Positions 21,290 through 64,000 of a DNA stretch of 64,000 bases are shown here, piece by piece. This stretch comes from a virus. Its lineage: Duplodnaviria; Heunggongvirae; Uroviricota; Caudoviricetes. Each line of letters begins with the position of its first letter. The stretch's first letter is position 1. The position numbers and the translations under genes are program-made. The DNA is taken from IMG/VR virus record IMGVR_UViG_3300028800_000057. One strand, written 5' to 3'. The notes beneath the pieces are model-generated. The model did no database searches. It saw only the letters and a list, made by a program, of their open reading frames with translations, and was not told where the DNA came from.

Positions 21290-21337
21290 TGGCCAGTTTT
21301 AGGTTGAGAATCGTCATCCTCGCGCGTAATACGAATC

Positions 21338-28961: not shown

Positions 28962-29401
28962 CAGATGACCGGATCCCGGTTGTACCTCGAGACCCTGTCA
29001 ACCGGTGTCAATGGCTCCTCAACGGGTGGTTCCGATGAGCCAGTGGGGTCACCTAGGTATCGAATCGTTGCCCATGGACCAAGACCCAGAATCCTCTCTT
29101 GTAGTACTGGAGCTTGTCCCCTCTGAAAGGTGAACTCAACATGGGTGTTCCGAGGGCCCCCCAAATTCGTGAGGGTAAACCCACCCCAGCCACCCCAGTA
29201 TGTACCACCTATCCAAACACGAGTATAAATGTCGTTCTCCGGTACTCCAGGGTCTTCAAAGCCCACCTCGTCAATAACACTACGAAGACTCTGTACCGCT
29301 ATGATAAGATCGCTCGGCCCAAACTCGTGATACCCACCACGACCCGTACGCCCCTTGACCACGAATACCTGATCGCTCTCGTCCACTTCAATCGTTGGCA
29401 T
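28961..29401 (-). CDS. Hypothetical protein with SRYNRDPVI tag (start ATG 29401)
   Basis: GGTGTA 11 nt upstream of ATG 29401; TGATG coupling to next gene. Confidence 0.7.
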   Translation of the reverse strand: MPTIEVDESDQVFVVKGRTGRGGYHEFGPSDLIIAVQSLRSVIDEVGFEDPGVPENDIYTRVWIGGTYWGGWGGFTLTNLGGPRNTHVEFTFQRGQAPVLQERILGLGPWATIRYLGDPTGSSEPPVEEPLTPVDRVSRYNRDPVI

Positions 29402-29420: not shown

Positions 29421-29621
29421 ATGTGGATTGACCCAAAGAAGCAAAACCCCGCGGTCGGAGTACCCGTCAGAGCCCTCCTCCGAGGGGCTACCACTGGGAA
29501 GCTCGTCGAGTCCGTTCTTGTCCACGTCGACGAAGATGACTGCTACTGGAGAACCGCTGACGACAACTCAGAGATAGACTTCAACTGGGAGGTAATCGGA
29601 TGGCTTCCGGAAGTCAAATGA
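29421..29621 (+). CDS. Small DUF551-like protein
   Basis: MWID.....P...V....VIGWLP pattern. Confidence 0.55.
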   Translation: MWIDPKKQNPAVGVPVRALLRGATTGKLVESVLVHVDEDDCYWRTADDNSEIDFNWEVIGWLPEVK

Positions 29622-30114
29622 CCGGTTCCCGCTCGTATCTCGAGACTCGTTCAAGTAAATTGGAACTCTCTTCCGATGGCTCAGCAGGTAACGATGGATC
29701 ATCCTGAACTTCTTCCTCGACAGGATCAGCAAACGCCGTACGGTATAGGTATTGACCCGCTTGCCCAGCTAACTGTGATGTGGGATCTAACCTGACAATA
29801 AAAATGCAAGCGAGGTCATAATCGACAGTACCCTCCTCTAGATTCTGAAGCACCCACTTAGCCACATCGAGTTGGGTACTCTCAACGACGTATAGGGGAG
29901 ACCTCTCCCCTATCAAGTATTGCGCTCTCGAAAGTCGCTCGTCTTGATCCGTACTGTGTTGGAATATGAAGGCTGAGGTAGAGTAGACTAAGGAGGGTCT
30001 TCGATTGCTATCAGCCCACGCCAAAAGATACCGAGCTGCCTCCAATTGCAGTTCAACCGGTACTTCAGAACACCCCATTAGCTTTTGACTAGCAAAACTT
30101 TTTCGTACAGGCAT
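29614..30114 (-). CDS. Hypothetical protein with SRYEREPVI tag (start ATG 30114)
   Basis: GGTGTA 9 nt upstream; tag at stop. Confidence 0.7.
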   Translation of the reverse strand: MPVRKSFASQKLMGCSEVPVELQLEAARYLLAWADSNRRPSLVYSTSAFIFQHSTDQDERLSRAQYLIGERSPLYVVESTQLDVAKWVLQNLEEGTVDYDLACIFIVRLDPTSQLAGQAGQYLYRTAFADPVEEEVQDDPSLPAEPSEESSNLLERVSRYEREPVI

Positions 30115-30130
30115 ATCAAAGAGTACACCA

Positions 30131-30163
30131 TCAGATGACCGGATCCCGCTCATATCTAGGCAT
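30131..30163 (-). CDS. 10-aa micro-ORF MPRYERDPVI consisting only of the tag
   Basis: ATG overlaps TGA of the upstream gene (TGATG); ends in TGA at 30131-33. Confidence 0.5.
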   Translation of the reverse strand: MPRYERDPVI

Positions 30164-30498
30164 CAAATCACCCACTCCCGCGAGTAACGACTCCTCCGAA
30201 GCCCAGCATACTTGACGTCTCGGTCAGGACAATTCAACCAAAGAACCGAACGATACAGATGGATAGTCTTCACATCCTCCAATGGACCATCCCATACCCA
30301 ACAGACCCGTACCTCATGACCCCGAGAACAAGCCGCCCTCCAAACAAAGTCAGCAACCGGTATCCGGCCAATAGCCTCCGTGCCTACAACACCCTGAGAG
30401 GGATACGTCAAGGGACAATACCGACAACCATCACATGAAGGCGGTAAAGCCAAATCACGCCCCCCGGGTACCCAAAGACCAACGCTCATTGATCCCAT
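30163..30498 (-). CDS. Cys-rich protein with SRYSREWVI tag, paralog of 28449-28961
   Basis: CDGCRYCPLTYPSQG; tag at stop. Confidence 0.7.
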   Translation of the reverse strand: MGSMSVGLWVPGGRDLALPPSCDGCRYCPLTYPSQGVVGTEAIGRIPVADFVWRAACSRGHEVRVCWVWDGPLEDVKTIHLYRSVLWLNCPDRDVKYAGLRRSRYSREWVI

Positions 30499-34408: not shown

Positions 34409-34911
34409 GTGGTACACGGAAAGTGGCAGGCTGAACAGACGGACAACCGCCGCAAATACCAAACCCACCCGGCCCAATTTTCCTAAATAACTACACACAC
34501 TATAATACCACACAATTCACGGTGCTTCGCACAAGTGACCTGTGATGGATTACACACCTACCTGCAGCCCCCACACACAGTTGTCTTGCAATTCATGTGA
34601 GTTCAGTGCAGCACCATTCACATTCACAGTGAATCACACAAGGAAGTGACACTGCGCCTCTGGCGCCTTGTGATTCACTGTGTAAAGTGTTGAGGTAGGA
34701 TAGTCACACCAGAACTAGGCGCGGAGCGCCGGGTTAGGGTTGGATATGTAGGCAGAGTATCGGTTCGTGACGATACCGCTCTGAAGTATTGTCCAAACCA
34801 CATGTAGTTATCGGTGACGTTCGTGCCCGTAAAAGTATGAACAGATACTATGCCTACATCAGAAGTATCAATTCTTGTTGAGATCAGAGCGAGTGGTGCG
34901 TAATAGGAGGC

Positions 34912-35304
34912 ATGACAATCAGCACTCCTGAGCAAGAAGAGATGATCAGGTCAACGGTACCCGGTGCAACCTGGTACTACCGAAGCATCAGTGGATGGCA
35001 TGAGGTCACCGTTGAGCGCGTGACCAAGACCGTGGTCATCATGACTACAGGAGAACGGGTCCCGAAGGCTTCTAGGCAGTGTGGTGGTCGGGTTTGGTTC
35101 CCACCTACACCTGAGATGGTTGAGCTCTACGAGGCCGAGCAGATGAAAGCGGCTGCCCAGACTCACTACCTGCAGGCTCTCGACAACCTTCAAGCGGTAG
35201 CCAAGCGCGCTACGCCGGCCCAGCTCCGTGAGCTGGCTACTCAGGTGAACAACGCAGTCGATCTCCTACAGGGGGAGATGAGGCGTGCAAGCGTGAAGGG
35301 GTAG
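34912..35304 (+). CDS. Hypothetical protein
   Basis: TTGAGA-N15-CGTAAT-N7-ATG. Confidence 0.75.
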   Translation: MTISTPEQEEMIRSTVPGATWYYRSISGWHEVTVERVTKTVVIMTTGERVPKASRQCGGRVWFPPTPEMVELYEAEQMKAAAQTHYLQALDNLQAVAKRATPAQLRELATQVNNAVDLLQGEMRRASVKG

Positions 35305-40903: not shown

Positions 40904-42259
40904 ATGGAGGTCGTTCCCTTTAATAATCCGTTTCTACTCAATCTTGGGGGTATGGAAAACCACGAAGAACTAGCTTCTGAGCACCCAACTAACCCTTGCC
41001 CTGCTCCCATACCAGAAGGACAGGTCCAACAAGCTATCCCCGAGGAGCTGCTTCGAACTGTAGTTGACGAGCTGAGGGGTATACGAGCCGATCTATCCGC
41101 CTTGGGTGATATGCGACAACTCGTCAAGGACCTGGTGAACTCCTTCTTGAACTTAGAGCCTCGAGTGGCGAAACTAGAGCACGATGCTGCACATGGGTTC
41201 GGTATTTGCAAGTACCACCATGATGGGGAAGTCAATAAGGACGTCTAACCCATATTAGTCGTTGAGATCCGGTCCCTGTCGTGCGTAATAGGGATCATGA
41301 GACATCAACGAGCATACACGATGAGAAGTACCCGTAGACGCCCACCATCACCCGAGAGTTTAGCCCGCGCAGTCAGAGGGGTTATGGGGTTGAAGGATAC
41401 AGATCCACTACCTACGCCCGAGGAGTTAGAGGCAGCCCTCCTTCCTCACGTAGACAAGGTCATGCCCAATGGCCTTGTGCTTCGAATGACCAGGGACACG
41501 GACGGTACACCCATGTTCGGAGTTGAGAAGGTCCAACCCACTCTCACATCAAACCCATGACCTTGAACCCGACCACCGAGAACAACGCCCAGCCCTTCAC
41601 CGGTAGTCAGAGGGTCATCCTGGAGAAGCGGACCCCTGAAGGCATCCTAGACCTGTCCGATCCCCAGCCCCCGCTCAAGGTCCATGATGTCGACGGCCGA
41701 GGACGTGGTACGCCCCGGGACCTCACCTTCGACGACGTCTACCGGATGATGTTCGATGCATGCCCAGACGCCCAAGGCTCCTGGGAGACACTCCGAGCTT
41801 GGCTCGACTCCAAGAGCTGGGTCGTAAGAGCCAAGACATGGTGAAGTACCGTAAGCTCTCAGAGCGAGACATCCTCCGGTGGGATGACGAGTACCGTCCA
41901 TACCCCGAGAGGATGTGGATGAAGGTCCACGGACCCGCTACAGGCTCACTCCATACGGTAGGGCTCCACCCGTACCCAGGGTTCGAGTACCGAAGGAAGA
42001 TACCATGCCCCAAATCATCGAACTGAACCGTCGGCTCTTCATCGAGTGGTCCAAAGGGACGCTCCTGAAGCGGGACCGTAATGGCAAGTGCATCGTCCTA
42101 GACGGCTCCGACTTCGCCCGTCAGTGCGAAGGGGTGGAAGCGGCTCTTGACCAAGGCGCTACGCTCTACCTCACAGACGATGCCGGCAAGCGTATCACCA
42201 AGATCACCTCCGACGGTAAGGGCTACGAAGAAGAGCTCCTAGACGAAGATTCTTGTTGA
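40904..42259 (+). other. Run of small + strand hypothetical genes (40904-41248, 41297-41560, 41557-41844, ~41838-42026, ~42002-42259)
   Basis: Coupled ORFs; class A promoter at 41262. Confidence 0.6.
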
Positions 42260-43775
42260 GAACGACACCCCCCATGCGTAATACCTGATGTGAGCTGATA
42301 CCCCCACCCATGGCGGGCTAAGCTCTTAGTTGGTTGACAGGCCCCAGGGGCGTCATGACCATGGTGGGTTGTGACGCCCTTGGTTTACCCTGGACCACTT
42401 ACCCTCGGGGGTTACATGGACAACAGTAGTATTCCCAAGCTGCTCAAGTTGAACTGGATGCAGTCATTAGTTGATGGGAAGCCCTGCGGGCCCGCCTTCG
42501 CATACCAAGGCCTGTGGGTGTACAAGAAGGAAGACGGCTCAATATTCAGGATGCGATTGAGCCAGGCCGCTTCCATGGAAGACATCAGGCCTTGCTGGCA
42601 GCCCATCAAGGTACAGGAGGTGTCCTGCACCCTAGTACCCCCACCGGCTACCCTAACCAAAGATCCCATGTACTTTGACCCGGCCTCCTTACTCGAAGAT
42701 AAGTGACCACACCATCACCTAAGTACATACTTTACCTACTACAACACTACTCACCTACTATAACGCCCGTGTTCTATTGTAGTTGTGTGATGAGCCCTGC
42801 ACTCCTTCAGTGTATTGTGTGGTTAGTGTGAGTGAGTAGTGAGTAACACAGTGTATTGTGTGTATACCCACACCTAACCTGCGCTGAGCGCCTGTTGTGT
42901 GTGGGTTGTGTGTATAGTGTAAATTCGATCCATTATCTTTTCGGTCGTCCGGACAGGGGGCTTAACCGCGTATTCAGTTTACGTACGATGGAGGTGAGGT
43001 AGAAGGATATTTCCGGGGTTCTCTCAGGGCGCCTTCGGCGCGATGAAGGACAGGGAAAGTATCCAAACAGACCCCCACCCCCCTAAAAGGGGACCCAAAG
43101 GGAGGGTGTGCGACCTTAAATTTTCTATGGGGCGGATATTTTTTCTGACAGGCCCATAATTCCAAGGTAGTGTGCTCGATTCAGGTGGTGTATCCAGAGC
43201 CCATGCCCATTGAAGCGAAGAATCTGCCTATTGTCTATGCGCACCTAGCTCCTGACGGACGTCTCTTGGATGCCAGGACGGAGGCACCGGTGTCGTGGGA
43301 GACGACTGGTGGTAAGGTTCATGAGTACGTGGTTCTGGTGGACTGGTTGTGGTCCGACGGGCCAGGGTTCGAGCTACCAGAAGAGGGGAAGGCGGTGGTG
43401 TGCAAGGTGATGACGATGGCCACTGGGTTGGAGGTACCTGACCGGATGCGGTACGCGTCCTATCCGAGTTGGAGTGGTATGTTTGGGTACCCATCTATGT
43501 GGGGTCGATGGGGGTGGAAGTACTTGGAGCCTTGAATGAAAAAGTTCCTTGTTGGTAAGTCTAGGGTCACTAACGATGTTGGAGGGGTCTCGTAGGAACT
43601 ACTCTTGGGCCGAGTGTAGTGGGACTGGATATCATCAGGATCGTCCAGTGTGGTTAGCGGTCTGGTTGATGATCATTGCTGACAACACGCTTCACCTGAT
43701 CTGTAATGGCCTCGCCCTGAAGTTTCTCTGAAAAAACTGATTGAGAGGACCTAACCCTCGCGCGTAATAGAGAGC

Positions 43776-43994
43776 ATGGCTACCAAGACCAAGTTAACAT
43801 CGGCGCAAGTTCGTACCCTCAGTGAGATTATCAAGCTAGCTGATGAGGGGTCTCGCAGGTATTACTGTGTCGTTGAGTACAAGCCGGCGCAAGCCCTTCT
43901 CAAGCTTGGTTATGTGAAGAAGGTCGAGGGGTTAGGTGACGAGTACCGGATGGCTCTAGTGCCGACGGTTGAGGGGCGTGGGGCGGTAGTGTGA
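43776..43994 (+). CDS. Small winged-helix-like protein
   Basis: LTSAQ.R.L...L.KLGYV...T.EGR; class A promoter at 43741. Confidence 0.65.
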   Translation: MATKTKLTSAQVRTLSEIIKLADEGSRRYYCVVEYKPAQALLKLGYVKKVEGLGDEYRMALVPTVEGRGAVV

Positions 43995-45901: not shown

Positions 45902-46229
45902 GGTTACTAGGCGAGGAGTGCGCTCAGCTTCATCTCGGCGGTTACCAGCTTCTGCTGCCGGCGCGCGATGGATCGTCTAACCCTAGATTCTAGACTGCAG
46001 GAGCGGCCATTGTGACGGTACCGATCAGTTGGTTTGACTTGGCTGAGTACCTGTTCGCTATGTCGAATCCCGCTCATCTGGTTGTTCATGTACATCCTGA
46101 TTGAAATCTCGGCAAAGAACAGGGCATTCGTAATTGGTTGGTATCTCATACCCTGTATTACGCACGGTGGTCAAAGATCTCAACGTAATTTTAGTTGAGT
46201 TCAGCCCATCCTCGCGCGTAATATTAACC

Positions 46230-46469
46230 ATGAAGAAGAATCAAGACCCAAAAGAGGCTATGAAGAGCCTTATCTCCGATGCCCGAGAGCATGCAGCCTC
46301 AATCGAAGCTGCATGTAAGATCCTGGAAAACGCCCTCAATGGGGTTGACCCAGAGCACAAAGAGTTCCTGGATAAGATGGCTGAGCTGTATGATGGTCGT
46401 CTGGTAGTCAACAAGCTTCGCACAGTTCTCCAAACTAACTTTGTCAGGACGTCAACCTCGTCGAGGTAA
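46230..46469 (+). CDS. Hypothetical protein, probably leaderless
   Basis: TTGAGT-N16-CGTAAT-N7-ATG 46230. Confidence 0.65.
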   Translation: MKKNQDPKEAMKSLISDAREHAASIEAACKILENALNGVDPEHKEFLDKMAELYDGRLVVNKLRTVLQTNFVRTSTSSR

Positions 46470-46884
46470 TACCCCATGCCCAAAGACAAGAGCACGTGTT
46501 GGCATACTCACCGAAGCGTTCCCCATACTATTCCAATCAAGGCTGAAGGATCTCAGGAGATCATTGGTGAGGCCACGCTCCGGGTATGCCTCGAATGTGG
46601 TCAGGTCGAAGGGTCGGTATCAAACGGATCCCTTCTCAACCCTTCGGGTAGCTTGCCACTGACTGTGCCCAAAGGCATTGACATTGGGGTAGCGGCCCGC
46701 AAGGTACTTGGGAATGCCTAACCACGAGCCTAATACTGTCTTTACCATCTCGGTGCTTAAGATAACCCAGTCGTACCTGACTGTTGAAGTAATCCTCTTG
46801 AACCTACTCTCCGGGATGATTTTTACCTACTGGGTTATCCGTTTATTTGATTGAGATCTGTGCCTCTCGCGCGTAATAAGGGGC

Positions 46885-47370
46885 ATGGCAAGAAAGATCA
46901 TCCTCCCAGTGGTAGTAGCACTCCTGGTACTAGACTTCGTGTTTAGCGTGTACGCTTCATCACTTACGCCTTCTGCCAAGAACATCTGTAGTCAGCTGCA
47001 AAGCAAGGGGTTGGTGAAGGATTGCCAACAGGGGACTCCGTGGGCCTTCGAGGTAGTAAGGCACGAGCCTCAATGGAGGTTCTACCCGACCAGCCCTGAG
47101 TTATTCGGGTGCTACCGCATCTCAAAGATTGGGTCGTGGGAGCGGTGTTACTTCGAGGGCGCAATCACTCAATTTGCTAGCGTGAGTGACCTCGACGCTG
47201 CAGTCACTCAGATCACTAATGCGCATCACCACGAAAACCTTGATAAATTTGCTGACATAGTAAGAGCTGACACCACACTAGAACATCACACAGTGTATGC
47301 TTATGCTAAGCATCGAATGCTAATTCTGATGCCGAGGACCGAGAAGGGGTACTCGTCGAAAATGAGATAG
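46885..47370 (+). CDS. Secreted/membrane-anchored protein
   Basis: Signal-like N-terminus; class A promoter. Confidence 0.7.
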   Translation: MARKIILPVVVALLVLDFVFSVYASSLTPSAKNICSQLQSKGLVKDCQQGTPWAFEVVRHEPQWRFYPTSPELFGCYRISKIGSWERCYFEGAITQFASVSDLDAAVTQITNAHHHENLDKFADIVRADTTLEHHTVYAYAKHRMLILMPRTEKGYSSKMR

Positions 47371-47716
47371 AGAGCTTACTTGGACCGAGTGACTAACTCC
47401 AATTCTGGTTGAGATCCACCCCTCTCGCGCGTAATAGTGGACATGGCAAGAATCACTCCTTTCTCGGTTGGTCAGCGCTGGTATTGTGACAACTCGGCTA
47501 CGGGGCGACCGAGCTTTACGTTCGTGATTCTTGGCCCTGGGTTCAAGTCTTATGAAAAGCGATGCCGGTTGGAGTATGATGACCCGCGACACCCACATCA
47601 TAATCTTGATGGTGAATACACACATAAGCACCTCAAGAAGTATGGCAAGCTTGTTTACACGGCCAAAACTTAGTACCTCTTAGCTTAACAACTCAAAACA
47701 AGAAAAGGGAAGACAA

Positions 47717-48586: not shown

Positions 48587-48630
48587 CCAAATGCGTTCCA
48601 TGATGCTCATGGAACGCATTTGGTTTAATT
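48587..48630 (+). terminator. Rho-independent terminator
   Basis: 17-bp perfect stem CCAAATGCGTTCCATGA/TCATGGAACGCATTTGG followed by TTTAATT. Confidence 0.75.
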
Positions 48631-48666
48631 GATTGAGAATATCGGAGCTCGCGCGTAATACTCAGC

Positions 48667-48933
48667 ATGGCTACTACTACTACCACTAAGTTTCACGGGA
48701 CCGTCGAGTACTTGGTTGGGCAACATGCGGCCATCGTAGAACTCACTGACGGGATGGGGGAGTGGGCGGGGGCCAGTCGGATTGACCTACGGCCCGTTGC
48801 CTTTGAGACCCGAGAGGGTCTTCAGTCGCGTCTTTATGAGGCTGGGTACATTCGAGCCAGCGCTTCCGCTGCTTCTAAGGGTGGCCGACTTGAAACCTAT
48901 AAGACTACTACTTTTCAACTTTCTTGTTGCTAA
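48667..48933 (+). CDS. Hypothetical protein, probably leaderless
   Basis: Class A promoter, ATG 7 nt after CGTAAT. Confidence 0.7.
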   Translation: MATTTTTKFHGTVEYLVGQHAAIVELTDGMGEWAGASRIDLRPVAFETREGLQSRLYEAGYIRASASAASKGGRLETYKTTTFQLSCC

Positions 48934-50969: not shown

Positions 50970-51038
50970 GGGTGGTACACTACCACCGGGTTTACAAGAA
51001 GGACACTTCTTTTGATCTATTGATAACTGCGGGTACGT

Positions 51039-52526
51039 ATGTCTGCTGATCTGATTCAGAGAGTAGGGCTTTGCCTCAAAAGGGTTGACTTTTGAATAAG
51101 TTCTATTACGCTGGAATCAGGTCTCATTCCTTCGACCAAAAGCGAGGGTTACGACCACTCGCTAAAGCCTCCGGTTAGGAGGGTCTCATACTTTTGAGGC
51201 AAAGAGAGAGTAGCGTCAAGATTCATCGAGGCATCAGCGCCTATCTCCGTAAAGGAAGTTGACGGAAGGATTGAAGTCTCTGGGCCTTATGACAAGATGA
51301 AGGACTTGATCCCTTACCTACGTGGGAAATTCGAGTATCGCGGTCATGACCACACTTGGTGGGAATCCAAAGCGAAAATGACCCCTCTGAAGATTAAGAA
51401 TCTTCAGAAGAAGGTTGATGCGGTCAATGGGAAATTTGGCCCCAACCCTGTGAAGGTGGAAGAGCCAGCGGATGCTAAGGCGGTCAGGATTGAGGAAGCC
51501 AAAAAGCTGCTCAGTAAAGCGATCCATATACGGGTTACTGGATTGATCTTTAGTCCCATCGGGGTCGATGGTGCTCAATTGACAGGAGCTCTTACTGATC
51601 TGAGGGTGTTGATTAACATGTCTGGTGGGGATTATGGCCCAGAGTTCTCGAAGTTCTATGTGCAGAATATCAAACCAGTAGAGTTTAGTAAGCTCCTGGA
51701 CGCGATTGAGGACCAGGGTAGGCTTGTGGCCAAGTCCCTTGCTGATCTGTCTAGTATAATTCCGCGCAAGTTCCCGAGCTTGCAGATTAACGTGGGGACC
51801 AATAACGGGAGCTACTTGTTCGTAGTCTCTGGAAAGACCTATGACTTCAAGGATGATATCAAAAAGCTGGTACCGGTAACATTCAATGGTCAAGGGAGTT
51901 TCTGGTGGGCTCCAGTCCATCAGGTTAAGGAAGCTCAAGTAAAGAAGCTAATTGAGTATCTCGAGAGTGAAGAGCGGGCGAGAGCTGAGAAATGGAAGGC
52001 TGAAAAGGTGGAGAGGACACCTACCGAGAAAGCGAAGAGGCCTAATCGTAGAGGGGATCATTGCTTAAACTGCGGGGCGTGGGTAGATGCTGGTGATGGT
52101 TACTTAGTAGACCATTGGGACAATGATGAGGACGAGCTAGTCTATAAGGTGGTTCACTCTGATCCTAGTGTCTGCGCTGAAGTCAAAGAGGCGGCCAGAA
52201 TACGCCGTGAAAAGGCTAATACGAAGCGTGAGGCTCAGGGAAACTTGTATAAGCTTTGTGCAAAGTCAGAGTACTATGTACAAGGTACAGGACATCGACC
52301 CCCAGGTGAGCAGATCTGGATTGACAAGACTGCACTCGGATATGGGGGTGGGACGTGGGTAGTTATTGAACCCGGTGATAACTACTTCTGGTATGTCAAG
52401 AATAACGGGGCTGACGGGGACGATTGGTCCAACAACAATGTCTCGACAGGTGGTGCTGGGGCCATTGGATATCGACTTCCGATGACAGAAGAAGCGCGCG
52501 TTCTCATTGACGTGGCAAAGGAGTAG
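51039..52526 (+). CDS. Gene split by a 147-bp insertion; restored product about 446 aa (MSADLIQRVASRFIEAS...), downstream part annotated from 51297
   Basis: Removing 51067-51213 fuses ATG 51039 in frame with the 51297-52526 ORF. Confidence 0.75.
51067..51204. mobile_element. 138-bp MITE-like insertion
   Basis: 14-bp TIRs CTTTGCCTCAAAAG (51069-82) / CTTTTGAGGCAAAG (51191-204); 9-bp direct repeat AGAGAGTAG (51058-66, 51205-13). Confidence 0.85.
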
Positions 52527-52535
52527 AGGTTAGCT

Positions 52536-53219
52536 ATGTCAGATCCCATTGTTGAGGTGGTGGTGCTCCGTTACAAGAAGGCTGCCGAGAGTTGGCTCAC
52601 CGAAACCAGTGATCAACTACCTCTTGAGGATGCAGAAGTATACATCAGGGAAGATGTCAAGCTAGTTCGTTGGTACAAGGCCAAGTGCTTGTACCTAGTC
52701 CCGATATTCAGAAGGCTGGCAGAACCGTTAGAAGCCCCCCAGATATTGGTCTCTGCAGATCGGATAGAGAAACGAGTTCAGGAGCTGGATCAGCTCATGG
52801 CGTTAGTTCAGGAAGGCGCCAAGCTGTTCAAGAAGGCTCAGAGTGAATTTGACCAACTCATCGAGGATCTTGCAGATAAGAAGCCTCGAAGGGGTGGGCT
52901 CATTGAGGCTGTCTACGACCTACCGAGTATTGAATCCATCCTCAAAGTAGCCAAGGACGCTCGTAAGATCCAGGACCGTTTCGTCAGGGAGGATGATGAC
53001 TACCATATCGACTGGGTATTGGAGGAGTATCTTGGCTCCGAGGCTGGGATTGGTAAGAAGATAGAGAAGAATGGGGCCAACCTTAATGGGTGGTTCACGG
53101 ACCGGTTCGTGGGCGTGTGGGTTCTATATGGTTTCGTGAAGTACTTCGTCGACACTGACTACATTCAATCGATGGTGGACGAGGTTCGATCCAATAAAGA
53201 AGTGGATGATAAGCCTTGA
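52536..53219 (+). CDS. Hypothetical helical protein
   Basis: 227-aa ORF. Confidence 0.7.
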   Translation: MSDPIVEVVVLRYKKAAESWLTETSDQLPLEDAEVYIREDVKLVRWYKAKCLYLVPIFRRLAEPLEAPQILVSADRIEKRVQELDQLMALVQEGAKLFKKAQSEFDQLIEDLADKKPRRGGLIEAVYDLPSIESILKVAKDARKIQDRFVREDDDYHIDWVLEEYLGSEAGIGKKIEKNGANLNGWFTDRFVGVWVLYGFVKYFVDTDYIQSMVDEVRSNKEVDDKP

Positions 53220-53257
53220 AAACTCGCTTACTGGTGTAGTATTGTCACTGGTAAGCT

Positions 53258-53626
53258 ATGAAGACTAGAATTTCGTATATAGAAGAGATGTGCAGAAGGC
53301 TCCCTTGGATGGGTAAATCCAAGGTTGAAGAGTTCTTACAGGCTCAAGCTGCAGCCATTACTGATGCGCTTAACGCTGATAGCGGTGGGGTTCCGACGGT
53401 GGTGATACCTGGGGTGGTCAAGATCACATCGAAGTACCGGGCGCCTCAACCTGAAAGAATACGCAGAAATCCTATTACAGGGGCCCCGCTAGTAGTTGGA
53501 GCTAAACCGGCATCACGCAAGCTAAAGGCCAAGTTCACTACGAGTATCTGTGCGGCAACCGGTGGTTTGGTGGCGACCGTACACGGACCTGGGGCTAAGA
53601 CTCGAGAGAAGCAGGAAGCCTCCTGA
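53258..53626 (+). CDS. HU/IHF-like DNA-binding protein
   Basis: IPGVVKI...R...ER.RRNPITG....VGAKPASRKLKAKF. Confidence 0.85.
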   Translation: MKTRISYIEEMCRRLPWMGKSKVEEFLQAQAAAITDALNADSGGVPTVVIPGVVKITSKYRAPQPERIRRNPITGAPLVVGAKPASRKLKAKFTTSICAATGGLVATVHGPGAKTREKQEAS

Positions 53627-53914
53627 TGACGGCCAAGTGTACGGTATGTGCGATCCCGTACGGTGAAACTCAATGTGTAACCTGTGGTGCTGAAGCACCA
53701 CAGGTTGAAGTTGGGCTTGTGCGAGAGCTGTATGAAGTAGGAAGTAATGGCCCACCGATACTCACTACAATAATGAGTATCCGGGAAGGTGTCGAAGTCG
53801 AGCCCGTTCGATGTGACAAGTGCGGCGAGTTGACGGTCAGCCACATTGAGAGTCCGGATGGGAAGAAAGGGTGCCTCAAGTGCTTTAGAGAGTTCTTGAA
53901 GCTAAGAGAACCGC

Positions 53915-54115
53915 TCAGTCAAATACCCGAGCCAACTCTTCCCGGACGATTGTCCTCAACGGACCTTCCTCTTCAGGTCGATTCTGCCAAAGTCTTGTGA
54001 TCTCTCGAGTTAGAAGATCGGCCGTAAACTCAGATAGGGTTTGACTATTGCCTCTTGCTAGTAGCCTAGCTTTCGCATTGGTCTCGTTGTCTACTTCGGT
54101 TGTTATGTGTTTCAT
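53915..54115 (-). CDS. Ribbon-helix-helix-like regulator
   Basis: MKHITTEVD.ET..KA..LA......TLSEF..DLL. Confidence 0.65.
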   Translation of the reverse strand: MKHITTEVDNETNAKARLLARGNSQTLSEFTADLLTREITRLWQNRPEEEGPLRTIVREELARVFD

Positions 54116-54190
54116 GGGTAACCTCCTTGAGTCCTAGCTTGTACCTAGTTTCTCTGGTTGGCAAGGAGTTCAGGTGCATATTCCCACATG

Positions 54191-54239
54191 AATTCCACTA
54201 ATTAGACACATGATCATCATGTGTCTAATTAGTGGAATT
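54191..54239. repeat. Perfect 49-bp palindrome (24-bp arms, 1-nt centre)
   Basis: AATTCCACTAATTAGACACATGAT-C-ATCATGTGTCTAATTAGTGGAATT. Confidence 0.92.
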
Positions 54240-54421
54240 GAAATGATTTGAACTCAAAAGGTCTCCGGTGTAGATAGTACTTAGCCGACGGCTTAGCGGT
54301 CGATAGTCCAGGGGTTGTTGTGCGCACCCTCTCCCTGGTGAGATGCCCAGCTTCCGTGTTCGGTGGGGAACCGAGGCCAGGTTCCTGACACAAGTCAGGA
54401 ACCTGGCCTTCTCCTTATCCA

Positions 54422-54772
54422 TTAGTTGGCGTTGGGTACAACCTGGGTGAAGCGTACTCTACCGCCCTCAATGAAGTGTGGATCTAGGACCACCTTGATA
54501 TGCTCTGCCCCTGGGACATCAAAGCTGGTCAAAAAGTCAGGACCATCTTCAACCTGTTTGATGGTGTACCTCTGTATATGCAGCCGATCCATCATATCCC
54601 TGAGCTTGTCGACATCGGTGAAGCAAGGCAGGTACTGATAGTTGGATCCGGGCATCATAAAGAAGTGAGGTTGGGTTCCATCCCACGGGAATACCGTCCC
54701 GGTTAGGTTTACTGTTTTCTCAGTGGTTCCTTCTACTCGATGAGGTTCCAGCATCCCTGCACAGTAGCACAA
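54422..54772 (-). CDS. Hypothetical (SseB-N-like YLPCFT motif)
   Basis: 116-aa ORF. Confidence 0.55.
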   Translation of the reverse strand: MCYCAGMLEPHRVEGTTEKTVNLTGTVFPWDGTQPHFFMMPGSNYQYLPCFTDVDKLRDMMDRLHIQRYTIKQVEDGPDFLTSFDVPGAEHIKVVLDPHFIEGGRVRFTQVVPNAN

Positions 54773-54776
54773 TCAC

Positions 54777-55106
54777 TTGTGGAATAGAACAAGTATGAAG
54801 CTCAAGCCGGTAGTAGACGACACAGGGAAACTTCGCGGGTACGCATTCTTCTGCCCCGGGTGCGACGGGGCACACATATTTTACACGACGGGGACCGTCG
54901 TCTGGGCGTTCGATGGGAACCAAGAGAGCCCTACGTTCAGTCCTTCATTGCTGAACACTTGCCCTAATCACCCGGACCCGAAGCAGCACCGGTGTCATCT
55001 GAACCTTACGGCCGGGAAGATTCAGTACCACGGGGACTGCAGTCACGACCTTGTTGGGAAGTTAATTGACCTACCAGAGTGGCCTTGGGCACCCGGAGAG
55101 GTGTAG
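54777..55106 (+). CDS. DUF6527-like Cys/His protein
   Basis: F.CPGC...H...W.FDGN.ESPTFSPS...CH..LT.G.IQY..DCSH.L.G. Confidence 0.75.
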   Translation: MWNRTSMKLKPVVDDTGKLRGYAFFCPGCDGAHIFYTTGTVVWAFDGNQESPTFSPSLLNTCPNHPDPKQHRCHLNLTAGKIQYHGDCSHDLVGKLIDLPEWPWAPGEV

Positions 55107-55252
55107 CCTAGAGTATCGTCTGGAGCGCTCGGAGCTGAATGGTTTTGCATAGCTACTGAGGCCGTGTGGCTGCTGATGGTTAGGGATAGGCCAGCACCGT
55201 AGTGCAATGCGGAGCTGGCCGTTTCTCTTTACTTGGCAATGCTCCTAAGTGG

Positions 55253-55392
55253 TTGATTTTGTAAGTTGGGTGAGTTATGATCTCATTGAATCAGGATACA
55301 TTCTTGATTTATTGGTTTTGTTCTTTCGACCAAAAGCGAGGATTATGATCACTCGCTAATGTCCCAGGTTAGGGAGTCCTTTTAGGGCAAAG
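55253..55392 (+). ncRNA. Promoter plus tracr-like structured RNA homologous to 51085-51204
   Basis: TTGATT-N17-TATGAT, GAATCAGG, TTCGACCAAAAGCGAGG-attatgatc-ACTCGCTAA, GGTTAGG loop, GGCAAAGAG. Confidence 0.6.
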
Positions 55393-55394
55393 AG

Positions 55395-55721
55395 GTGTCT
55401 GACTATCTTGAAACCAAGCATGAGTTGAGGGAACTCAAGAATACCTTCGTAGCAGTCACGACTCGAGTAGAAGCGGTGGATGCCTACTCACATGAGGTCG
55501 CTGAGCGCAGTCATGACCTCAAGGAGACGGTGGCTCAGCTCTCGGGGTACCTGGCTGGGATACTTCCGAAGGCTGGTGTGAAGGTCCCAGGGGCTGAGCC
55601 AGGGGCTATCAGCATGGAGATTGTCTCTGACCCACTTCCCATGAACGAGAAGCGTCAACGCCCGGTGAACGTCCACACCCGGGTGCCGGCACCCAAGCCC
55701 AATGACAGTTCAGGTCGATAG
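55395..55721 (+). CDS. Hypothetical coiled-coil protein
   Basis: 108-aa ORF followed by a terminator. Confidence 0.65.
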   Translation: MSDYLETKHELRELKNTFVAVTTRVEAVDAYSHEVAERSHDLKETVAQLSGYLAGILPKAGVKVPGAEPGAISMEIVSDPLPMNEKRQRPVNVHTRVPAPKPNDSSGR

Positions 55722-55775: not shown

Positions 55776-56861
55776 ACCATCGGCAACAATTTGTTAGGCT
55801 CTACACCTAAAACCTAACCATATCGAGGGGCTGGGATTCTGCACCCTTACCGTATGAGTGAACCGGTTATGCCAGAGTCTTGTCCTGTTTTGGTCTATTG
55901 TTCAGGATTCCCCTAGTATCTACACCTTGTACTCAATACTTTGCAAGTGCATTCAACTGAATATCTGGGATAGTTGACAATTGACGACTACCCTAGTATC
56001 AGAATAAGCTATGTACCAAGAGGATCTTATCCATGTAGTATCTGTGCTTCTGTCTCTATGCGGACCTGAGGCTGGATATCTTGAGTACAAGGAAGGCTCT
56101 GTAGAAGATCCTGGGGGTGAGTTTGATGAAGCGCTGGCGCTTGGATGGGTTGTGAAGGAGAGCGAGGGCGGGCCTTGGTGGAGGATCAATGTGTCACCGA
56201 AGGGCACTGAGTTGGTAGAACAGATCTTCAAGGCAACCGGTGTCGAGATAACTCAATGAAGTTCCCATGGTTTCATAGGCCCAAGAAACTGAGCTTAGTC
56301 GATTCTCAGCTCAAGAGGTTGTACTCTAACACCGCTCGAACCTTTGGGTTGCGCGGGCGTGCACTCACGGTCTCAGTCAAGGCTCAGATGGGTTTTCCCT
56401 ATCACACGGAGCAAGAGTTCCTTGAGAGGATTGCGATCCTCATTCATGCTCTCGTATTAGAGGGTAACCTTGACGAGGCGGTAGCTGAACTTAGGAAGCT
56501 TCGGGATACTCCGCTCCACCATGATCAGTGATTATGATCTCGAAGTCATCTGTCAGAAGGTACTTGCCGCTGACGAGAACCGATTCACGATTGTGCTACA
56601 TAAGCACGGCAAGTCGGTTCTAGGCCACCTGGTTGGTAAGGTATCGATGATGGTCCCGAAGTCAGAATTGTCGAAGGATCTTCTTCTCCGCGCCCATCAG
56701 ATGTTGGCTAAGTTGTTGGATACACCCAGTAATTAGCACTCACACTGGTATGGGTTCCCAGGTATCGGGGCGCATACTAAGGGGAAACCCTAGAAAAGGT
56801 GTTCCATAAATCGATTTATCAAGAAAAAGATGTTGAGATCTGACACCGGTGGCGCGTAATA

Positions 56862-57290
56862 GTGGGCATGGAACATCAAACCCAGATTACAGATGAACAA
56901 GAAGTCCACTCCTCCGTACATCTTACTCGAGTTACGGTACCACCACCGGCTGAAGCCCTAGTGTTAGTTCAAAGTGAAAGAGCATTGGCGCGAATTAGTA
57001 AAGCACAGGAGCAAGCTAATAAGGCACGGGAGCAAGGGGACATCGTCGTCACGGTGAAAGAGCAACCCGAGCTAATCAATAGCGTGGCCAGGATGTTGGA
57101 TGTAAATCCTATCTCAGTTGCTATACACCTGGCAATAATCAACAAGACGCTTATCCAAGCAGTTTTCGTTGACGGTAAGCTTCGACGTGATCGTGCAGCC
57201 CGTAGACCCCTCAACAACCTTAACTTCTCCGGGCCGTCTTTTGGCCAACGAAGTATCGAGTTGGTCCTGACGATGAGTTTGGTGGTATGA
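56862..57290 (+). CDS. Hypothetical protein (start ATG 56868)
   Basis: Class A promoter 56833-56860. Confidence 0.65.
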   Translation: MGMEHQTQITDEQEVHSSVHLTRVTVPPPAEALVLVQSERALARISKAQEQANKAREQGDIVVTVKEQPELINSVARMLDVNPISVAIHLAIINKTLIQAVFVDGKLRRDRAARRPLNNLNFSGPSFGQRSIELVLTMSLVV

Positions 57291-57651: not shown

Positions 57652-58293
57652 ATGCCAAGTGGAACTAACAGACCTCCCAGATTCAGAGGTCGTATGTTTG
57701 GATTGAAAGGTGATCCTAACTTCCCAAGATTGGCCAGGGACGGGCTACCGTGTCAATCCGATGCTTTCAGGATGATTTTGGCTGGAGGTCCTCGAAGCAT
57801 CAAAGAAATTATTTCCCTCCTTGAAGCACTTGATTGGATGCCCTACACCAAAGGTGACAAGGAACACTACATCGGGAATAACCTGAGTATCTGTTGTGGT
57901 ACTAAGGCGAAGGGAAACGATAGGATAGAAAGGGATCGCAACGGGGACAGAGAAAACTTTGGGTTCTATCGTCTTCGCAATAGGGACCATAGGCTTATGA
58001 AGTGGGTCTCAGAGAATAAACCTGAACTACTTCATTCGAATGCACTAGATCTCATAAACGCTTCTAAATCCAAGCCTGAGCACAAGCCAGTCTCAAAGTC
58101 TACATCAGACAAGGGAAATGGTAGCTCAAAAGCTCCGCTCGCCGTAAGCCCACCTGAGCACACTCTGGTCATTGGTCCAATTAAGGGTGTGTTTCATGTT
58201 AGCTTGTTTGGCAAGCGGGACCCGCTGTTCACGGTCGACTTCGAATTATTCCCTTCTGCTGATCAGGTCCATGGCCTTGGAGGTCGACGCTAA
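57652..58293 (+). CDS. Winged-helix-like domain protein
   Basis: GPRSIKEII..L...DWMP......YI.NNLS, similar pattern to 32931-33506 C-terminus. Confidence 0.6.
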   Translation: MPSGTNRPPRFRGRMFGLKGDPNFPRLARDGLPCQSDAFRMILAGGPRSIKEIISLLEALDWMPYTKGDKEHYIGNNLSICCGTKAKGNDRIERDRNGDRENFGFYRLRNRDHRLMKWVSENKPELLHSNALDLINASKSKPEHKPVSKSTSDKGNGSSKAPLAVSPPEHTLVIGPIKGVFHVSLFGKRDPLFTVDFELFPSADQVHGLGGRR

Positions 58294-60720: not shown

Positions 60721-60804
60721 AGTAACAAGCTCAACGATTTAGTTGAGATTCGTGCTCTCCGCGCGTAATACTGGTCGATTCCAATCTAATACTTGAGGTG
60801 AGAA

Positions 60805-63491
60805 ATGGATTCCATCAGTAAAGTTACGGCAAATTGGGTGTCAGAGGTTATAGGTCTCGCTACAGGAGAGGTGTCTCAGCTACTGGCTGATGCGGTTCCT
60901 ACTCAGGCAGAGGGTCTAGTCAGTGTCAAAGGGGTGGAAAAGGACCTTGGGGTTACCATCATTCGAGTCGAGATCACCATAGAAAGCAGACAAGTGTACG
61001 GTCTCGTCGTCGTAAGAACGAGCCTCCAAATCATAAGGGATGGTGTGACTATCCTACTGAGTGGGGATCCCGTGGCGCTTGTCACTGGTATCAAGGCAAA
61101 AGCTGCTGAGTTGGTTACTTGCCTGAAGATAGCTCCTAACGGGTATCGAATTTAGTACAGTTATACTGTCGCCCGGCTTGAGCAATAACCGAATCCTGTT
61201 GAAATTACAGATTACCCTAGTAGTATGCCAGGATGAGCTGTGACTGGAACGTTTTCTGTCGTACCTGTAATGATGAACATGGGTTTGATGACGCAAATCA
61301 CATGGTGGATCTTATGTTCACCCTCATCAGACACGCTGATGCTATCGCCGGTCTGACTTCATTGCTGGATAGCACGTCAGACGTGGTTCTGAAGACTCAC
61401 TACGGGGAGATTACCGCTGGGTGGTTCAAGAAGCATCTGGGTCATGATTTGGTGGCCCGTTCCGAGTACGGAGATATTCGTGAAGTACCAGAGAATCCTG
61501 TTGAGAGCGAAAACCCTCATGCGTAATAGAGAGTATGGAAAAGCTCACCAAGTCCGAGAGTCAGATTCTTGCTAAGGTTGAAGCTGGCGCAACCGCAGGG
61601 GCTTTGATAGGGCTGGGCATAAGTCCGGAATCCCCTCACTTCTCGGACCCAGAGTACCGATTCATCAAACGGTTGTATGAAGCTAATAAGATCGTTTGGG
61701 TACCTTGGAGCAAAGTCCATGGTGCCGGTTGGGCTCTTCCTGGTAGGTTCCCAGAGGTCGGTGAGTACTACGTCGAATTTGATGAAACTGACGAGATGTA
61801 TTACGTCTACCACACCAATACCGGTGACCACACCTACTCATCCTGGTGTGATAAGGAACAAGCCCAACGTGATGCAGACCGACGCAATGGTGTTGAGAAA
61901 CCCTAACCTCGCGCGTAATAAAGAGCATGTCGTCATCAAGAACTCCCCGCTACGTAGTGAACTTTACCACTGTTCACCCGACCCAGTTCCACACGGGCAT
62001 TGAATGGAAGTTGAGTGTTCATGGTCAGCCGACTGACAGCAACCTCATATCCTTCTGCGCGAAGTACGAGGAGTCAACTCGGAGTGGTGGCTGCAACGAA
62101 CACCTGGGGCCGATGCAAATCTCCGAAGCCAAGATTGTTGATCAGAAGACCTCCAAGGTCGTAGCTGAAGCAATCTTCGCATCCTAGTACGATTCTGTTG
62201 AGAAACCTAACCCTCACGCGTAATAGCTACTATGGCAATGTACAGCAGCAAAGCACTCGAGAAACAAGCACACGAACTCAATGCTCAGATCTTAGCTGCG
62301 TTGACTGCAGCAGGAATCAAAGCTGAGTTGAGTGAAAACTCAGAAGGAATCAAGATTCCTGAGTACACCTACTACATACTCAGTGTCAGTGAGCCTTACT
62401 CTGGGTCTACTTGGAGTCGTAACCCTTCAGGTAAGCTCGAAGTGGACTTTAGGTCGGTCCATACGGGCATGGGTTGTCTCTGTCACGCCAAACGGTTCAA
62501 GATTGACACCAAAGATCTGATCAAGAAGGTAGTAGCGAGTGTCAAAGAGCGCCGGGACGCCCTCGTTGCTGTAGCCAAGCGGGACAAGGAAAAAGACAAG
62601 GCTCAACGATCTCACCAAAAGATCCTCAGGGCCATGAAAGAGAACTACCCTGAGTTCTATGGTAACATCGAGCACCACGAATCTCAGATCAATCTTAACT
62701 TTCGTCGCCTGACGGAGGGCGAGGCTCGGTTGATCCTGATGACGCTTCGCAATGCCGGCATCAATAGTACTCCCGCCCTCACGGATGACTCAGACTCTAA
62801 TAACGAGGACTAACATGTACGAAATTGGACTCAGGCGGTTGTTCTCTGATGCTGAGGCAGCCAAAAACAATGACAAGATCGTGGAGCAGATCCGCGGGTA
62901 CTTCAACAATGAGAGTTGGAATCTCCTTCAGAGCCGGTATGCTTGGTGGGTCATGGGAGTCATTCGCTTCATGGAGCAAGAGAATTGCTCCAGCTTGGAA
63001 GTCATGACCGAGAAGCTACAGGAGAAGATCCGGAATGCCAAGACCTCAGAAGAGATCATGGACGTTCGGATAATCTTCAATGGTGATGCTTGGTTGACTA
63101 TCCAGGCTAGGTTCTGTTGGTGGACTATCGGAGTTGAGAAGTTCCAAGCAGATCGAAGGGCAGCATGAACATCGAATACATCGTGGTCTGTAGAGAAGAC
63201 CGGAAGGATGATGGGACCCCCGGTGACTATACGCTGGTGACCCGCACCGTATTCCCCAACAAGGAAGCGGCAGAAACTTTCGCCGATGGGTGCGCAAGTG
63301 AGCGACAAGCCATCGTTGTGGGTGGCAGATTCGACGGGTTGCGCCGGGACTTTGAGGATAGGTTTGGGGCTTCAAAGAAGACCACTTACATCTGTGGTAG
63401 CAAAAGTACCACCGTGAGCGAGGATACTGGCGTTGTCACCGTTCAGGACTCTAATAACCCTCAGACCACCAAGCACCTTTCACTTTCTTAG
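60805..63491 (+). other. Run of small + strand genes mostly under class A promoters (60805-61155, 61233-61526, 61535-61906, 61927-62187, 62232-62813, ~62815-63168, 63165-63491)
   Basis: TTGAGA/CGTAAT promoters at 60743, 61501, 61893, 62198. Confidence 0.7.
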
Positions 63492-63534
63492 GCTTTTGGT
63501 TGAGTTTCGAGTACCACTGCGCGTAATACCTAAC

Positions 63535-64000
63535 ATGGCAAACAGCGAGATCAACTACAAGCAACTTAGAGACGGAACATGGGGCCTTGCTGGAATCAAT
63601 CTAGTGCCCGGTACGACGGTTACGGTCACCAAGAAGTCCAGGGAGACCAAGCGTGAAGTTGTCGGAGCCATCGTGTGGAAGAATCGAACCGACGGCTTCT
63701 GTTACGCCACTATCGCTACCGAGCAGAGTGCCCAGGCCCCTCAAGCTAAAGCAGCCCCCAAGGCCCGTAGCACCGCTACCAGAGGCACCTCTACTACTCG
63801 TCGTAGCAGCCGTCGGTCTGGTAAGCAAGAAGGCGCTCAAGAGGGCAAGTACCAGTCATCGCGTGAAGGCGATGATGGTGATGAGGTCGGTCGAGTATGC
63901 TGGCTCCGGACCCGTGGAACTCGAATCCCCGTCGTCGTGATTGGTTGGAGCACTGGCTACTGCAAAGAAGATGGCCTCTCAATGTGCTTACCCATGGATG
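63535..64000 (+). CDS. Hypothetical protein, runs off window end (MANSEINYKQLRDGTWGLAG...)
   Basis: Class A promoter at 63500-63527, ATG 7 nt downstream, frame open to end. Confidence 0.75.
   Translation, partial: MANSEINYKQLRDGTWGLAGINLVPGTTVTVTKKSRETKREVVGAIVWKNRTDGFCYATIATEQSAQAPQAKAAPKARSTATRGTSTTRRSSRRSGKQEGAQEGKYQSSREGDDGDEVGRVCWLRTRGTRIPVVVIGWSTGYCKEDGLSMCLPMD

Follow-up and report, generated by a model that had tools for sequence, protein, structure and literature searches.

Two short loci on a huge-phage genome fragment, at 51085-51204 and 55253-55392 of a 64,000-nucleotide stretch of Caudoviricetes DNA (IMG/VR record IMGVR_UViG_3300028800_000057; the whole stretch is called the window below), are copies of a discrete non-autonomous transposable element of 140 to 200 nt. 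The element carries an RNA module that shares homology, across its 5' half, with the corresponding half of the trans-activating CRISPR RNA (tracrRNA) of a type V CRISPR locus in the same window. We are highly confident of these two parts, mobile element and tracrRNA homology, taken together. A preliminary description had located both loci correctly and taken them for remote RNA cassettes 36 to 40 kb from the CRISPR locus; rather than fixed genes, they are transposable element copies with inverted-repeat ends and 9-bp target duplications. Of the four interpretations that it offered for the RNAs, natural single guides using flanking DNA as spacer fits best, and an alternative tracrRNA is weak. 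The whole model that we develop from it, guide function included, has in our judgment just short of an even chance of being correct.

Two copies of a mobile element

The first copy in the window (51k copy; 140 nt, 51067-51206, plus strand) runs from the left inverted repeat GGCTTTGCCTCAAAAG to the right end CTTTTGAGGCAAAGAG, and the second (55k copy; 160 nt, 55235-55394, plus strand) from a degenerate left repeat, GGCAATGCTCCTAAGTGG, to the right end CTTTTAGGGCAAAGAG. They score 98.6 and 90.2 bits, respectively, with R1, a covariance model (CM) built from six cassettes. The terminal inverted repeats are imperfect, with the left end opening on GGCTTTG and the right end closing on CAAAGAG; in the 51k copy, the inverted repeats CTTTGCCTCAAAAG (51069-51082) and CTTTTGAGGCAAAG (51191-51204) match at 14 of 14 positions, and they are degenerate in the other copies. 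Three pairs of near-identical elements lie in different flanks: 51k and L034, 55k and L039, and L042 and L043. Identity between the 51k copy and L034 starts at GGCTTTGCCTCAAAAG, a short way 5' of the -35 hexamer; in all three pairs it stops directly past AAAGAG (for L042/L043, on the right side); the flanks of the 55k and L039 elements differ on both sides. A direct repeat of 7 to 9 nt surrounds 9 of 13 copies, the first bases of the right flank being repeated before the left end.

The 51k copy splits a gene of unknown function (51039-52526, plus strand) at codon 10, leaving exon-like parts at 51039-51066 and 51214-52526. The left flank reads ATG TCT GCT GAT CTG ATT CAG AGA GTA G, the frame resumes past the element, and the two parts joined encode 446 amino acids (aa) collinear with the ortholog in G002 from residue 1; the first in-frame ATG 3' of the copy is at 51297. 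The triplet TTC (51055-51057) precedes the left target duplication AGAGAGTAG (51058-51066, plus strand), and the right duplication occupies 51205-51213, with a 2-nt ambiguity of the boundary because the element ends in AG. Uninterrupted alleles of this gene are present in G002 and G004. The empty site of G004 is contained in contig L059, of which 5527-5585 corresponds to window positions 51008-51066 and 5577-6588 to 51205-52216, so that the two flanks of the insertion have nine aligned bases in common. Even the mobile-element part alone corrects an annotation: one "cassette" is a gene-splitting insertion and not a regulatory locus. The 55k copy also follows a TTC (55223-55225) and a 9-mer, TCTTTACTT; its right-side duplication is absent, and a GTG start codon comes directly after its AAAGAG. 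A scan of IMG/VR with its right flank gave no match, G004 lacks the 55k neighborhood, and an empty site was not found for this copy.

The family, gathered with pattern scans and R1, comprises 13 distinct copies, every one on a contig of related huge phages. The window and G001 (145 kb; effector 73% identical) have two each, G002 (228 kb) and G003 one each, a 473-kb contig two, and short metagenome contigs five. Most relatives of the window are fragments (related IMG/VR records span 98 to 229 kb and are rated 19 to 45% complete), and one is located on the 473-kb contig, from ENA, whose two copies lie less than 8 kb from the effector gene. Effector and cassettes occur together in the window, G001 and the ENA contig. 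No copy was found in GenBank phages or in 185,579 prokaryote species represented by one genome each; the element is, as far as sampled, confined to one clade of huge phages. Exact 17-mer matches in L003, L004, L006, L007, L037, L038, L041 and L053, as well as loose hairpin matches in L008 to L025, were discarded as chance similarities in coding DNA.

How might such a short element move? IS903B ends begin with GGCTTTG, and its direct repeat is 9 bp (PMC10569121). The left edge of the window truncates the gene of a DDE_Tnp_1 (PF01609) transposase, leaving its C-terminal half (3-518, plus strand; Pfam E value, 8.7e-18). Its closest annotated relatives are IS903B-type IS5 transposases at 24 to 26% identity. 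A homolog with 70% identity lies on a 466-kb contig among phage-like genes. Trans-mobilization by an IS903-related DDE transposase, such as the one at the window's left edge, is plausible, though no more than a lead. Inverted repeats matching the element ends were found neither around the transposase gene on another phage contig nor in G001 or G002, and an autonomous partner with matching ends was likewise not found in these places. Bacterial relatives of the window transposase stand in a fixed operon of a 94-aa open reading frame (ORF), the transposase and a DUF2779 protein, suggestive of a domesticated enzyme. Insertion directed by CRISPR RNA (crRNA) finds no support: 82 CRISPR spacers were compared with all loci and with G001 to G003, and none matched an insertion site.

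The RNA module and its kinship with tracrRNA

Each copy has a promoter-like site followed by stacked hairpins. The putative promoters seen earlier are present: a sigma-70-like TTGACT-16-TACGCT at 51085-51112, read from sequence and kept at this position in relatives, and a promoter-like TTGATT-17-TATGAT at 55253-55281, both on the plus strand. ATCAGG, C(C/T)TTCGACC and the second hairpin are also found in both loci, and transcription of the 51k copy would start near its ATCAGG (51116). The two loci share 82% identity across 60 nt and an exact TTCGACCAAAAGCGAGG (0.09 expected). The bulged hairpin GCGAG-NNN-loop4-NNN-A-CTCGC has exactly four plus-strand sites in the window (14699, 14820, 51142 and 55336); at up to 2 mismatches there are 7 matches against 1.3 expected, a number reached in none of 100 shuffles. 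As had been reported, the inner stems of the four hairpins covary (GAA/TTC, GGT/ACC twice and GAT/ATC) around a constant bulged A. The 25-nt identity to 14817-14841 exists too; it lies at 51139-51163, nine bases to the left of the 51148-51172 first given.

In the 51k copy, the RNA module (51120-51206, plus strand) consists of P1 (51120-51123/51134-51137), the bulged hairpin P2 (51142-51162), P3 (51168-51182), P4 (51183-51200) and the tail AAAGAG (51201-51206). The 55k copy has an extra 5' hairpin, P0 (55290-55308, plus strand), before P1 (55314-55331), P2 (55336-55356), P3 (55362-55375), P4 (55376-55388) and the tail (55389-55394). The consensus is P1 (GGTC...GACC), bulged P2, P3 (CCTCC-GGNTA-GGAGG) and P4 (GCCTC...GAGGC), then AAAGAG, and the module ends at the element's last base. 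This arrangement changes two earlier readings. A pseudoknot between a GGTTA loop and the 5' GACC is not borne out: the loop is GGCTA, GGATA or CGGAT in relatives while GACC is invariant, being the 3' arm of P1. The sequence GGCAAAGAG is indeed present, but as the 3' arm of the fourth hairpin plus the last six bases of the mobile element rather than as a free-standing motif.

Could these be decaying copies of a tracrRNA gene, or a selfish element with a captured tracrRNA fragment and no present RNA function? The element is mobile and can land inside a gene, and the left repeat of the 55k copy is degenerate and its duplication absent, all in keeping with decay. We nevertheless consider this reading quite improbable. 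By RNAalifold and pair counts over the 13 copies, 97% of the cells are paired and 6 pairs show changes on both sides; the covariation score of the alignment was reached by none of 500 shuffles. P2, P3 and P4 carry compensatory changes between copies and between phages, and the promoter position is conserved. The right end, moreover, deviates from the left repeat in the same way in 12 of the 13 copies, the last two bases being AG where repeat symmetry predicts CC (the G002 copy ends in AT). In L042 and L043, P4 has become GACCC/GGGTC, which keeps the hairpin and loses the likeness to the left repeat. The P4 change and the AG ends suggest constraint on the RNA and not on transposase binding.

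A processive antitermination RNA of the put or nut kind, placed after early promoters, would also combine a promoter with stacked hairpins in each copy, and the two copies per genome recall HK022, which has two such sites, putL and putR. Against it, the copies move by transposition and occupy different positions in sibling phages; they may point toward convergent genes, they share homology with tracrRNA, and an Rfam match is absent. We give this explanation hardly any credence. The comparison with Rfam, proposed at the outset, likewise matched none: no family reached its gathering threshold in the window, and nothing relevant appeared at an E value of ≤1 within 51000-55500.

The tracrRNA gene (14655-14795, plus strand) is conserved upstream of all effector homologs fetched. 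It reads, in order, P1, P2, P3', an anti-repeat and a 3' part complementary to its own promoter. P1 is GGGG...CCCC with CCTTCAA in its loop, P2 is at 14699-14719, and the anti-repeat CCCCACTTACTC is at 14748-14759. Cofolding of tracrRNA and repeat pairs CCUUCAA with the UUGAAGG of the repeat 3' end, and CCCCACUUACUC with GAGUAGGUGGGG. Within the window, R1, which was built from cassettes only, has just four hits: the two cassettes, the tracrRNA (27 bits) and the hairpin at 14817 (26 bits). It also finds the tracrRNA ahead of each effector homolog fetched, and its E values for tracrRNAs run from 9e-5 (window) to 4e-6. Cassettes and tracrRNA have P1-AAA-P2-UAA in common. P1 of the tracrRNA is GGGG/CCCC in the window and GGAG/CTCC in L033 and L048, where P2 is letter-identical to the cassette P2. 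By these comparisons, the 5' half of the module (P1, AAA, bulged P2 and UAA) is homologous to that of the tracrRNA.

The homology does not make the cassettes tracrRNAs. An alternative tracrRNA or an RNA decoy would pair the 3' ends of crRNA repeats through C(C/T)TTCGACC, or sequester the effector, thereby modulating or blocking the phage's own CRISPR activity. Read from sequence, pairing of CCTTCGACC and CTTTCGACC with the end of the repeat, GGTTTGAAGG, is feasible if G-U pairs are allowed; P1-P2 is common to both RNAs; and phages carry repeat-mimicking RNA anti-CRISPRs, reportedly described by Camara-Wilpert et al. in 2023. The 12-nt main anti-repeat CCCCACTTACTC, though, is missing from the cassettes, which have the short CYTTCGACC only, and the GACC of this motif is the 3' arm of P1 in 13 of 13 copies. 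Nor does a decoy need placement at a transposon end or a one-sided TTC, and the element resides in a genome that encodes the effector. We regard this option as improbable. What stands of the earlier tracrRNA proposal is the homology itself.

Downstream of P2, the two RNAs part in a way that suggests a fused guide. In the tracrRNA, a hairpin is followed by the anti-repeat:repeat duplex, and the UUGAAGG of the repeat is paired to the P1 loop. In the cassettes, P3 is followed by a closed P4 in the place of that duplex and then by AAAGAG, which is able to pair with UUCUUU of the cassette's own P1 loop. The putative scaffold stops where the element does, with the flank directly behind it. The cassette RNA thus resembles a fused single guide with the right flank as its putative guide, as judged from sequence and folding; for the 51k copy, this flank (51207-51232, plus strand) would belong to the RNA.

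A probably nuclease-dead Cas12f-like effector

The type V locus (14.6 to 18.8 kb) is arranged as tracrRNA gene, 579-aa Cas12f-like ORF, 236-aa ORF and 19 repeats. The effector gene (14857-16596, plus strand) has a GTG start. A profile of 11 homologs matched Cas12f1 9i8y (E value, 4.7e-14) and AsCas12f 8j1j (4.6e-10) in PDB; a TnpB/Cas12f fold and a zinc ribbon adjoin a CRISPR array and a tracrRNA, as in Cas12f systems, and a phmmer search of PDB with the C terminus alone gave nothing. By alignment, the D-E-D triad of RuvC is incomplete: the RuvC-I aspartate is kept (D329), the RuvC-II glutamate is replaced by D434, and at the RuvC-III aspartate (NADY in 8j1j) the window has N and its five closest homologs have V, V, T, N and I, whereas five distant homologs retain D. 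With the RuvC-III aspartate lost, the most likely outcome is RNA-guided binding and not cutting, and the effector probably binds DNA without cleaving it. This recalls nuclease-dead Cas12f proteins, which use single guides, in part encoded at a distance, to bind DNA (PMC13472631), and Cas12m, which is reported to protect by binding.

The 236-aa ORF (16605-17315, plus strand) is next to the effector in all relatives. Its product is all helical with a long C-terminal coiled coil in an AlphaFold2 model (predicted local distance difference test score, 80), and nothing convincing was found for it in Pfam, PHROGs, PADLOC, the ESM Atlas or a Foldseek search of PDB. It is a possible partner of the effector. 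As a separate observation, G004, which holds the empty site, encodes a different Cas12f-like ORF (L060/L061, 28287-29513; 658 aa, 31 to 36% identity), and no cassette was found within its 98 kb.

A one-sided target motif and the putative guide match

Target sites share a motif on one side. Among 12 independent left flanks, positions -12 to -10 are TTC in 11 and CTC in 1, always on the promoter side, and the rule also covers copies without a duplication. The right 9-mer is never followed by GAA (0 of 9). An empty site thus has the form 5'-TTC-X9-rest, and the corresponding RNA would be scaffold-X9-rest. By analogy, this is the geometry of Cas12/TnpB systems, with a protospacer-adjacent motif (PAM) or transposon-adjacent motif (TAM) on the 5' side and the guide 3' of the scaffold. 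Since the 9 nt after TTC are the ones duplicated by insertion, the putative guide would match the unoccupied site (5'-TTC, 9 nt and downstream sequence) exactly; for the 51k copy, 25 nt of the right flank are identical in the uninterrupted G004 allele. Within the carrier genome, TTC is retained at the left copy of the 9-mer, where the match is only 9 nt long, and GAG precedes the right copy. Five insertions lie at the 5' end or start codon of a gene (51k, L015, L032+, L039 and L014), where a roadblock on the empty allele would be well positioned.

In the model that we favor, the internal promoter would drive the RNA module and read out into the right-hand DNA. P4 would replace the tracrRNA:repeat duplex and AAAGAG the 3' tail of the repeat, the tail pairing with UUCUUU of the P1 loop as the UUGAAGG of the repeat pairs with CCUUCAA of the tracrRNA. 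The transcript would be a natural single-guide RNA for the Cas12f-like effector, guided by the DNA to the right of the element and able to recognize only genomes without the insertion. The most likely result would be binding-based silencing or exclusion of sibling or competitor genomes, and feedback on the element's own left end may also occur.

Several observations weigh against this model. Four copies, the 55k copy among them, lack a duplication. The uninterrupted G004 allele has TCC at the PAM position, through a synonymous ATT-to-ATC change. The PAM is based on one protospacer, which has TTT rather than TTC: the sole true protospacer for the 82 spacers is matched by a G001 spacer (L001 4763-4799) in G003 (L015 11059-11094) at 36 of 36 positions, with TTT as its 5' flank. 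The guide-like flanks of the 13 copies gave only chance matches of 11 to 14 nt against all collected sequence. The pairing of P1 loop and tail never varies, and it contains a C-A mismatch in the 51k copy and L034. A sharp 3' edge of conservation is expected at any transposon end, so it is no independent evidence of a guide. G002 has a cassette, and no effector is found in its 228-kb fragment (45% complete). Finally, the target preference of IS903 is WTTYA-N9-TRAAW (PMC2577343), so the TTY half-site could be a transposase preference. The IS903 motif is a palindrome standing one base away from the duplication; here the motif is one-sided (TTC/CTC in 12 of 12 left flanks, GAA after the right 9-mer in 0 of 9) and abuts the 9-mer, so that the IS903 preference explains the data only in part.

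The rival that we take most seriously is an ordinary MITE (a miniature transposable element with inverted repeats) with an outward promoter and a structured mRNA leader, in which P2 would be an operator hairpin bound by the effector or another protein, the flank no guide and TTC a transposase half-site. It continues the earlier proposal of effector-controlled 5' leaders. Its ends and 9-bp duplication fit IS903-type transposition, whose target motif includes TTY; co-directional genes follow most copies (51k, 55k, L002, L014 and L032-); and in both the window and L032 a copy of P2 precedes the effector start by 15 nt. Other copies speak against the element being purely a leader. The one at 57885-57978 of G001 faces a convergent two-gene operon whose stop codon is 17 nt past the element, and for L015, L032+, L039 and L014 the nearest start codon is that of a leftward gene, inside the left 9-mer. 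Between copies, the spacing to the following start codon ranges from 0 to about 160 nt, and both the one-sided TTC and the layout of the 3' half, which mirrors a tracrRNA:repeat duplex plus tail, are left unexplained. We judge this alternative unlikely, if far from negligible.

In its widest form, the single-guide model describes a DDE-type miniature transposon with a captured or evolved fused tracrRNA-crRNA scaffold at its outward end. Each insertion would automatically create a guide against insertion-free genomes for a nuclease-dead Cas12f-like protein, since TTC and the duplicated 9 nt would form a PAM-protospacer junction only at the empty site. This would amount to a self/non-self marking or drive device between huge phages and an intermediate between omegaRNAs and the tracrRNA/crRNA pair. 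This wider reading is tentative, and we think it more apt to be wrong than right.

As an observation apart, G003, the target of the G001 spacer, itself has a cassette, indicative of phage-against-phage targeting inside the clade. Two window spacers scanned in IMG/VR gave no match, and neither did two CRISPR arrays compared with GenBank phages.

Relation to known systems

As reported by Meers et al. (bioRxiv 10.1101/2023.03.14.532601), the TnpB and IscB omegaRNAs (reRNAs) of IS200/IS605 elements and of their non-autonomous PATE derivatives place a flank-guided scaffold at a transposon end. The phage element has the same placement, a flank as putative guide and an effector of TnpB/Cas12f ancestry, and its RNA would match a vacant site beside a 5' TAM that borders the other end, a likeness read here from sequence. 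Unlike these systems, in which HUH enzymes peel and paste without duplication, it has inverted repeats and a 9-bp duplication of the DDE type; its effector gene is not part of the element and adjoins a CRISPR array and tracrRNA tens of kilobases off; nuclease activity of the effector is probably lost; and the host is a huge phage.

The dCas12f-sigmaE and TldR systems are also compact RuvC-inactivated effectors that use single guides, some of them remote, and bind without cutting, and a CRISPR-linked dCas12f cluster has been described as well (PMC13472631). These systems have fixed guide genes, target host promoters behind a 5'-G TAM and come with sigmaE or helix-turn-helix partners or C-terminal truncations, in contrast to the mobile putative guide genes, the flank as putative guide, the TTC motif and the possible 236-aa helical partner seen here. 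Among mobile elements, the IS903 group (IS5 family) shares the GGCTTTG end and 9-bp duplication (PMC10569121), and a PF01609 transposase occurs in the phage. Like MITEs in general, the element is short (140 to 198 nt) and non-coding and has terminal inverted repeats. It differs from IS903 in that only 7 terminal bases match, the right end is CTCTTTG and not GGCTTTG, the target motif is one-sided and the cargo is a tracrRNA-homologous RNA module.

Other Cas effectors are reportedly loaded by RNAs from outside an array, namely the long-form tracrRNA of Cas9, the Francisella small CRISPR/Cas-associated RNA (scaRNA) and CreA/CreR, in work attributed to Workman (2021), Ratner (2019) and Li (2021). 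These RNAs act via PAM-flanked, sometimes partial matches, and they are single fixed loci by cas genes with evolved targets, whereas here transposition would create the match automatically. The regulatory promoter early stem-loop (PeSL) cassettes of T4-type phages, said to have been described by Arbiol in 2010, and the Correia MITEs of Neisseria are likewise short intergenic modules of promoter and stem-loop that move or recombine between genomes. They have no homology to CRISPR RNA, no 9-bp duplication with a one-sided TTC and no 3' module resembling a guide scaffold.

If the flank does act as guide, this would be the first RNA-guided protein programmed by transposition outside IS200/IS605 and CRISPR-associated transposons, and it would involve a viral DDE-type element working in trans on an effector shared with a CRISPR array. 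One effector would then use two guide formats, a dual tracrRNA:crRNA and a fused single guide, which would bear on the origin of tracrRNA and repeat from omegaRNA. In practical terms, nature would here supply a compact single-guide design for a DNA binder of 579 aa. It would also provide a concrete mechanism for rivalry between huge phages, among which a G001 spacer already targets the cassette-bearing G003.

Further features of the CRISPR locus

The array (17541-18835, plus strand) has 19 repeats of 36 nt each, and the conserved 3' half of the repeat, GAGTAGGTGGGGTTTGAAGG, is also kept in relatives. It contains an 18-nt spacer (17945-17962), and two degenerate repeats have a gap of 5 nt (18795-18799) between them. 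Because the far-end repeats carry mutations, the leader is probably on the cas side. An AAA_33 kinase-like gene and the gene for a Thg1-like tRNA-His guanylyltransferase border the array in the window (18774-20019), in L032 (13652-17260) and in other relatives.

The effector 5' leader has features of its own. A second copy of the P2 hairpin lies in it at 14817-14841 (plus strand), 15 nt before the GTG start; L032 likewise has a P2 copy in its effector leader, and L001, L033, L045 and L048 have a degenerate repeat at that place. The leader ends with a repeat-like tail, (G)AAGG, adjoining the ribosome-binding site and start codon (window 14817-14856, L001 1540-1575 and L033 9963-9998); this tail follows the P2 copy in the window and L032 and the degenerate repeat GAGTGGGTG in L001, L033, L045 and L048. 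GAGTGGGTG is complementary to the tracrRNA anti-repeat, and the effector mRNA leader may be a crRNA mimic.

The 3' part of the tracrRNA (14770-14795) is complementary, at 17 to 19 of 20 positions, to the -35/spacer region of its own promoter (14617-14640). The same complementarity is found in L001, L032, L033, L045 and L048, and the two arms change together across these six lineages, for instance, CACCAATCGTCC/GGACGATTGGTG in the window and CACAAGTAGTTC/GAACGACTTGTG in L033. Directly 5' of the self-match, the displaced strand has a triplet rich in pyrimidines (ATC, CTT, CTC, CCC, TTT and CTC). The pattern looks like self-targeting autoregulation by the tracrRNA in the manner of the Cas9 long-form tracrRNA.

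Other repeats in the window

The motif GTTGAGA-N14-CGCGCGTAATA-N5-CATG is repeated directly at gene starts, at 13488-13526, 21301-21347, 34875-34921, 41261-41299, 43740-43794, 46194-46232, 46848-46903, 47406-47461, 48630-48685, 56832-56886, 60742-60771, 61892-61945, 62197-62250 and 63499-63537. It is probably a phage-specific promoter for leaderless or near-leaderless mRNAs. A second motif, beginning with ATGACCGGATCCC, recurs at the ends of consecutive minus-strand genes (8825-8862, 28959-28996, 29612-29649 and 30129-30157), and a 48-nt repeat is present in two copies 1.5 kb apart, at 28902-28949 and 30388-30435.

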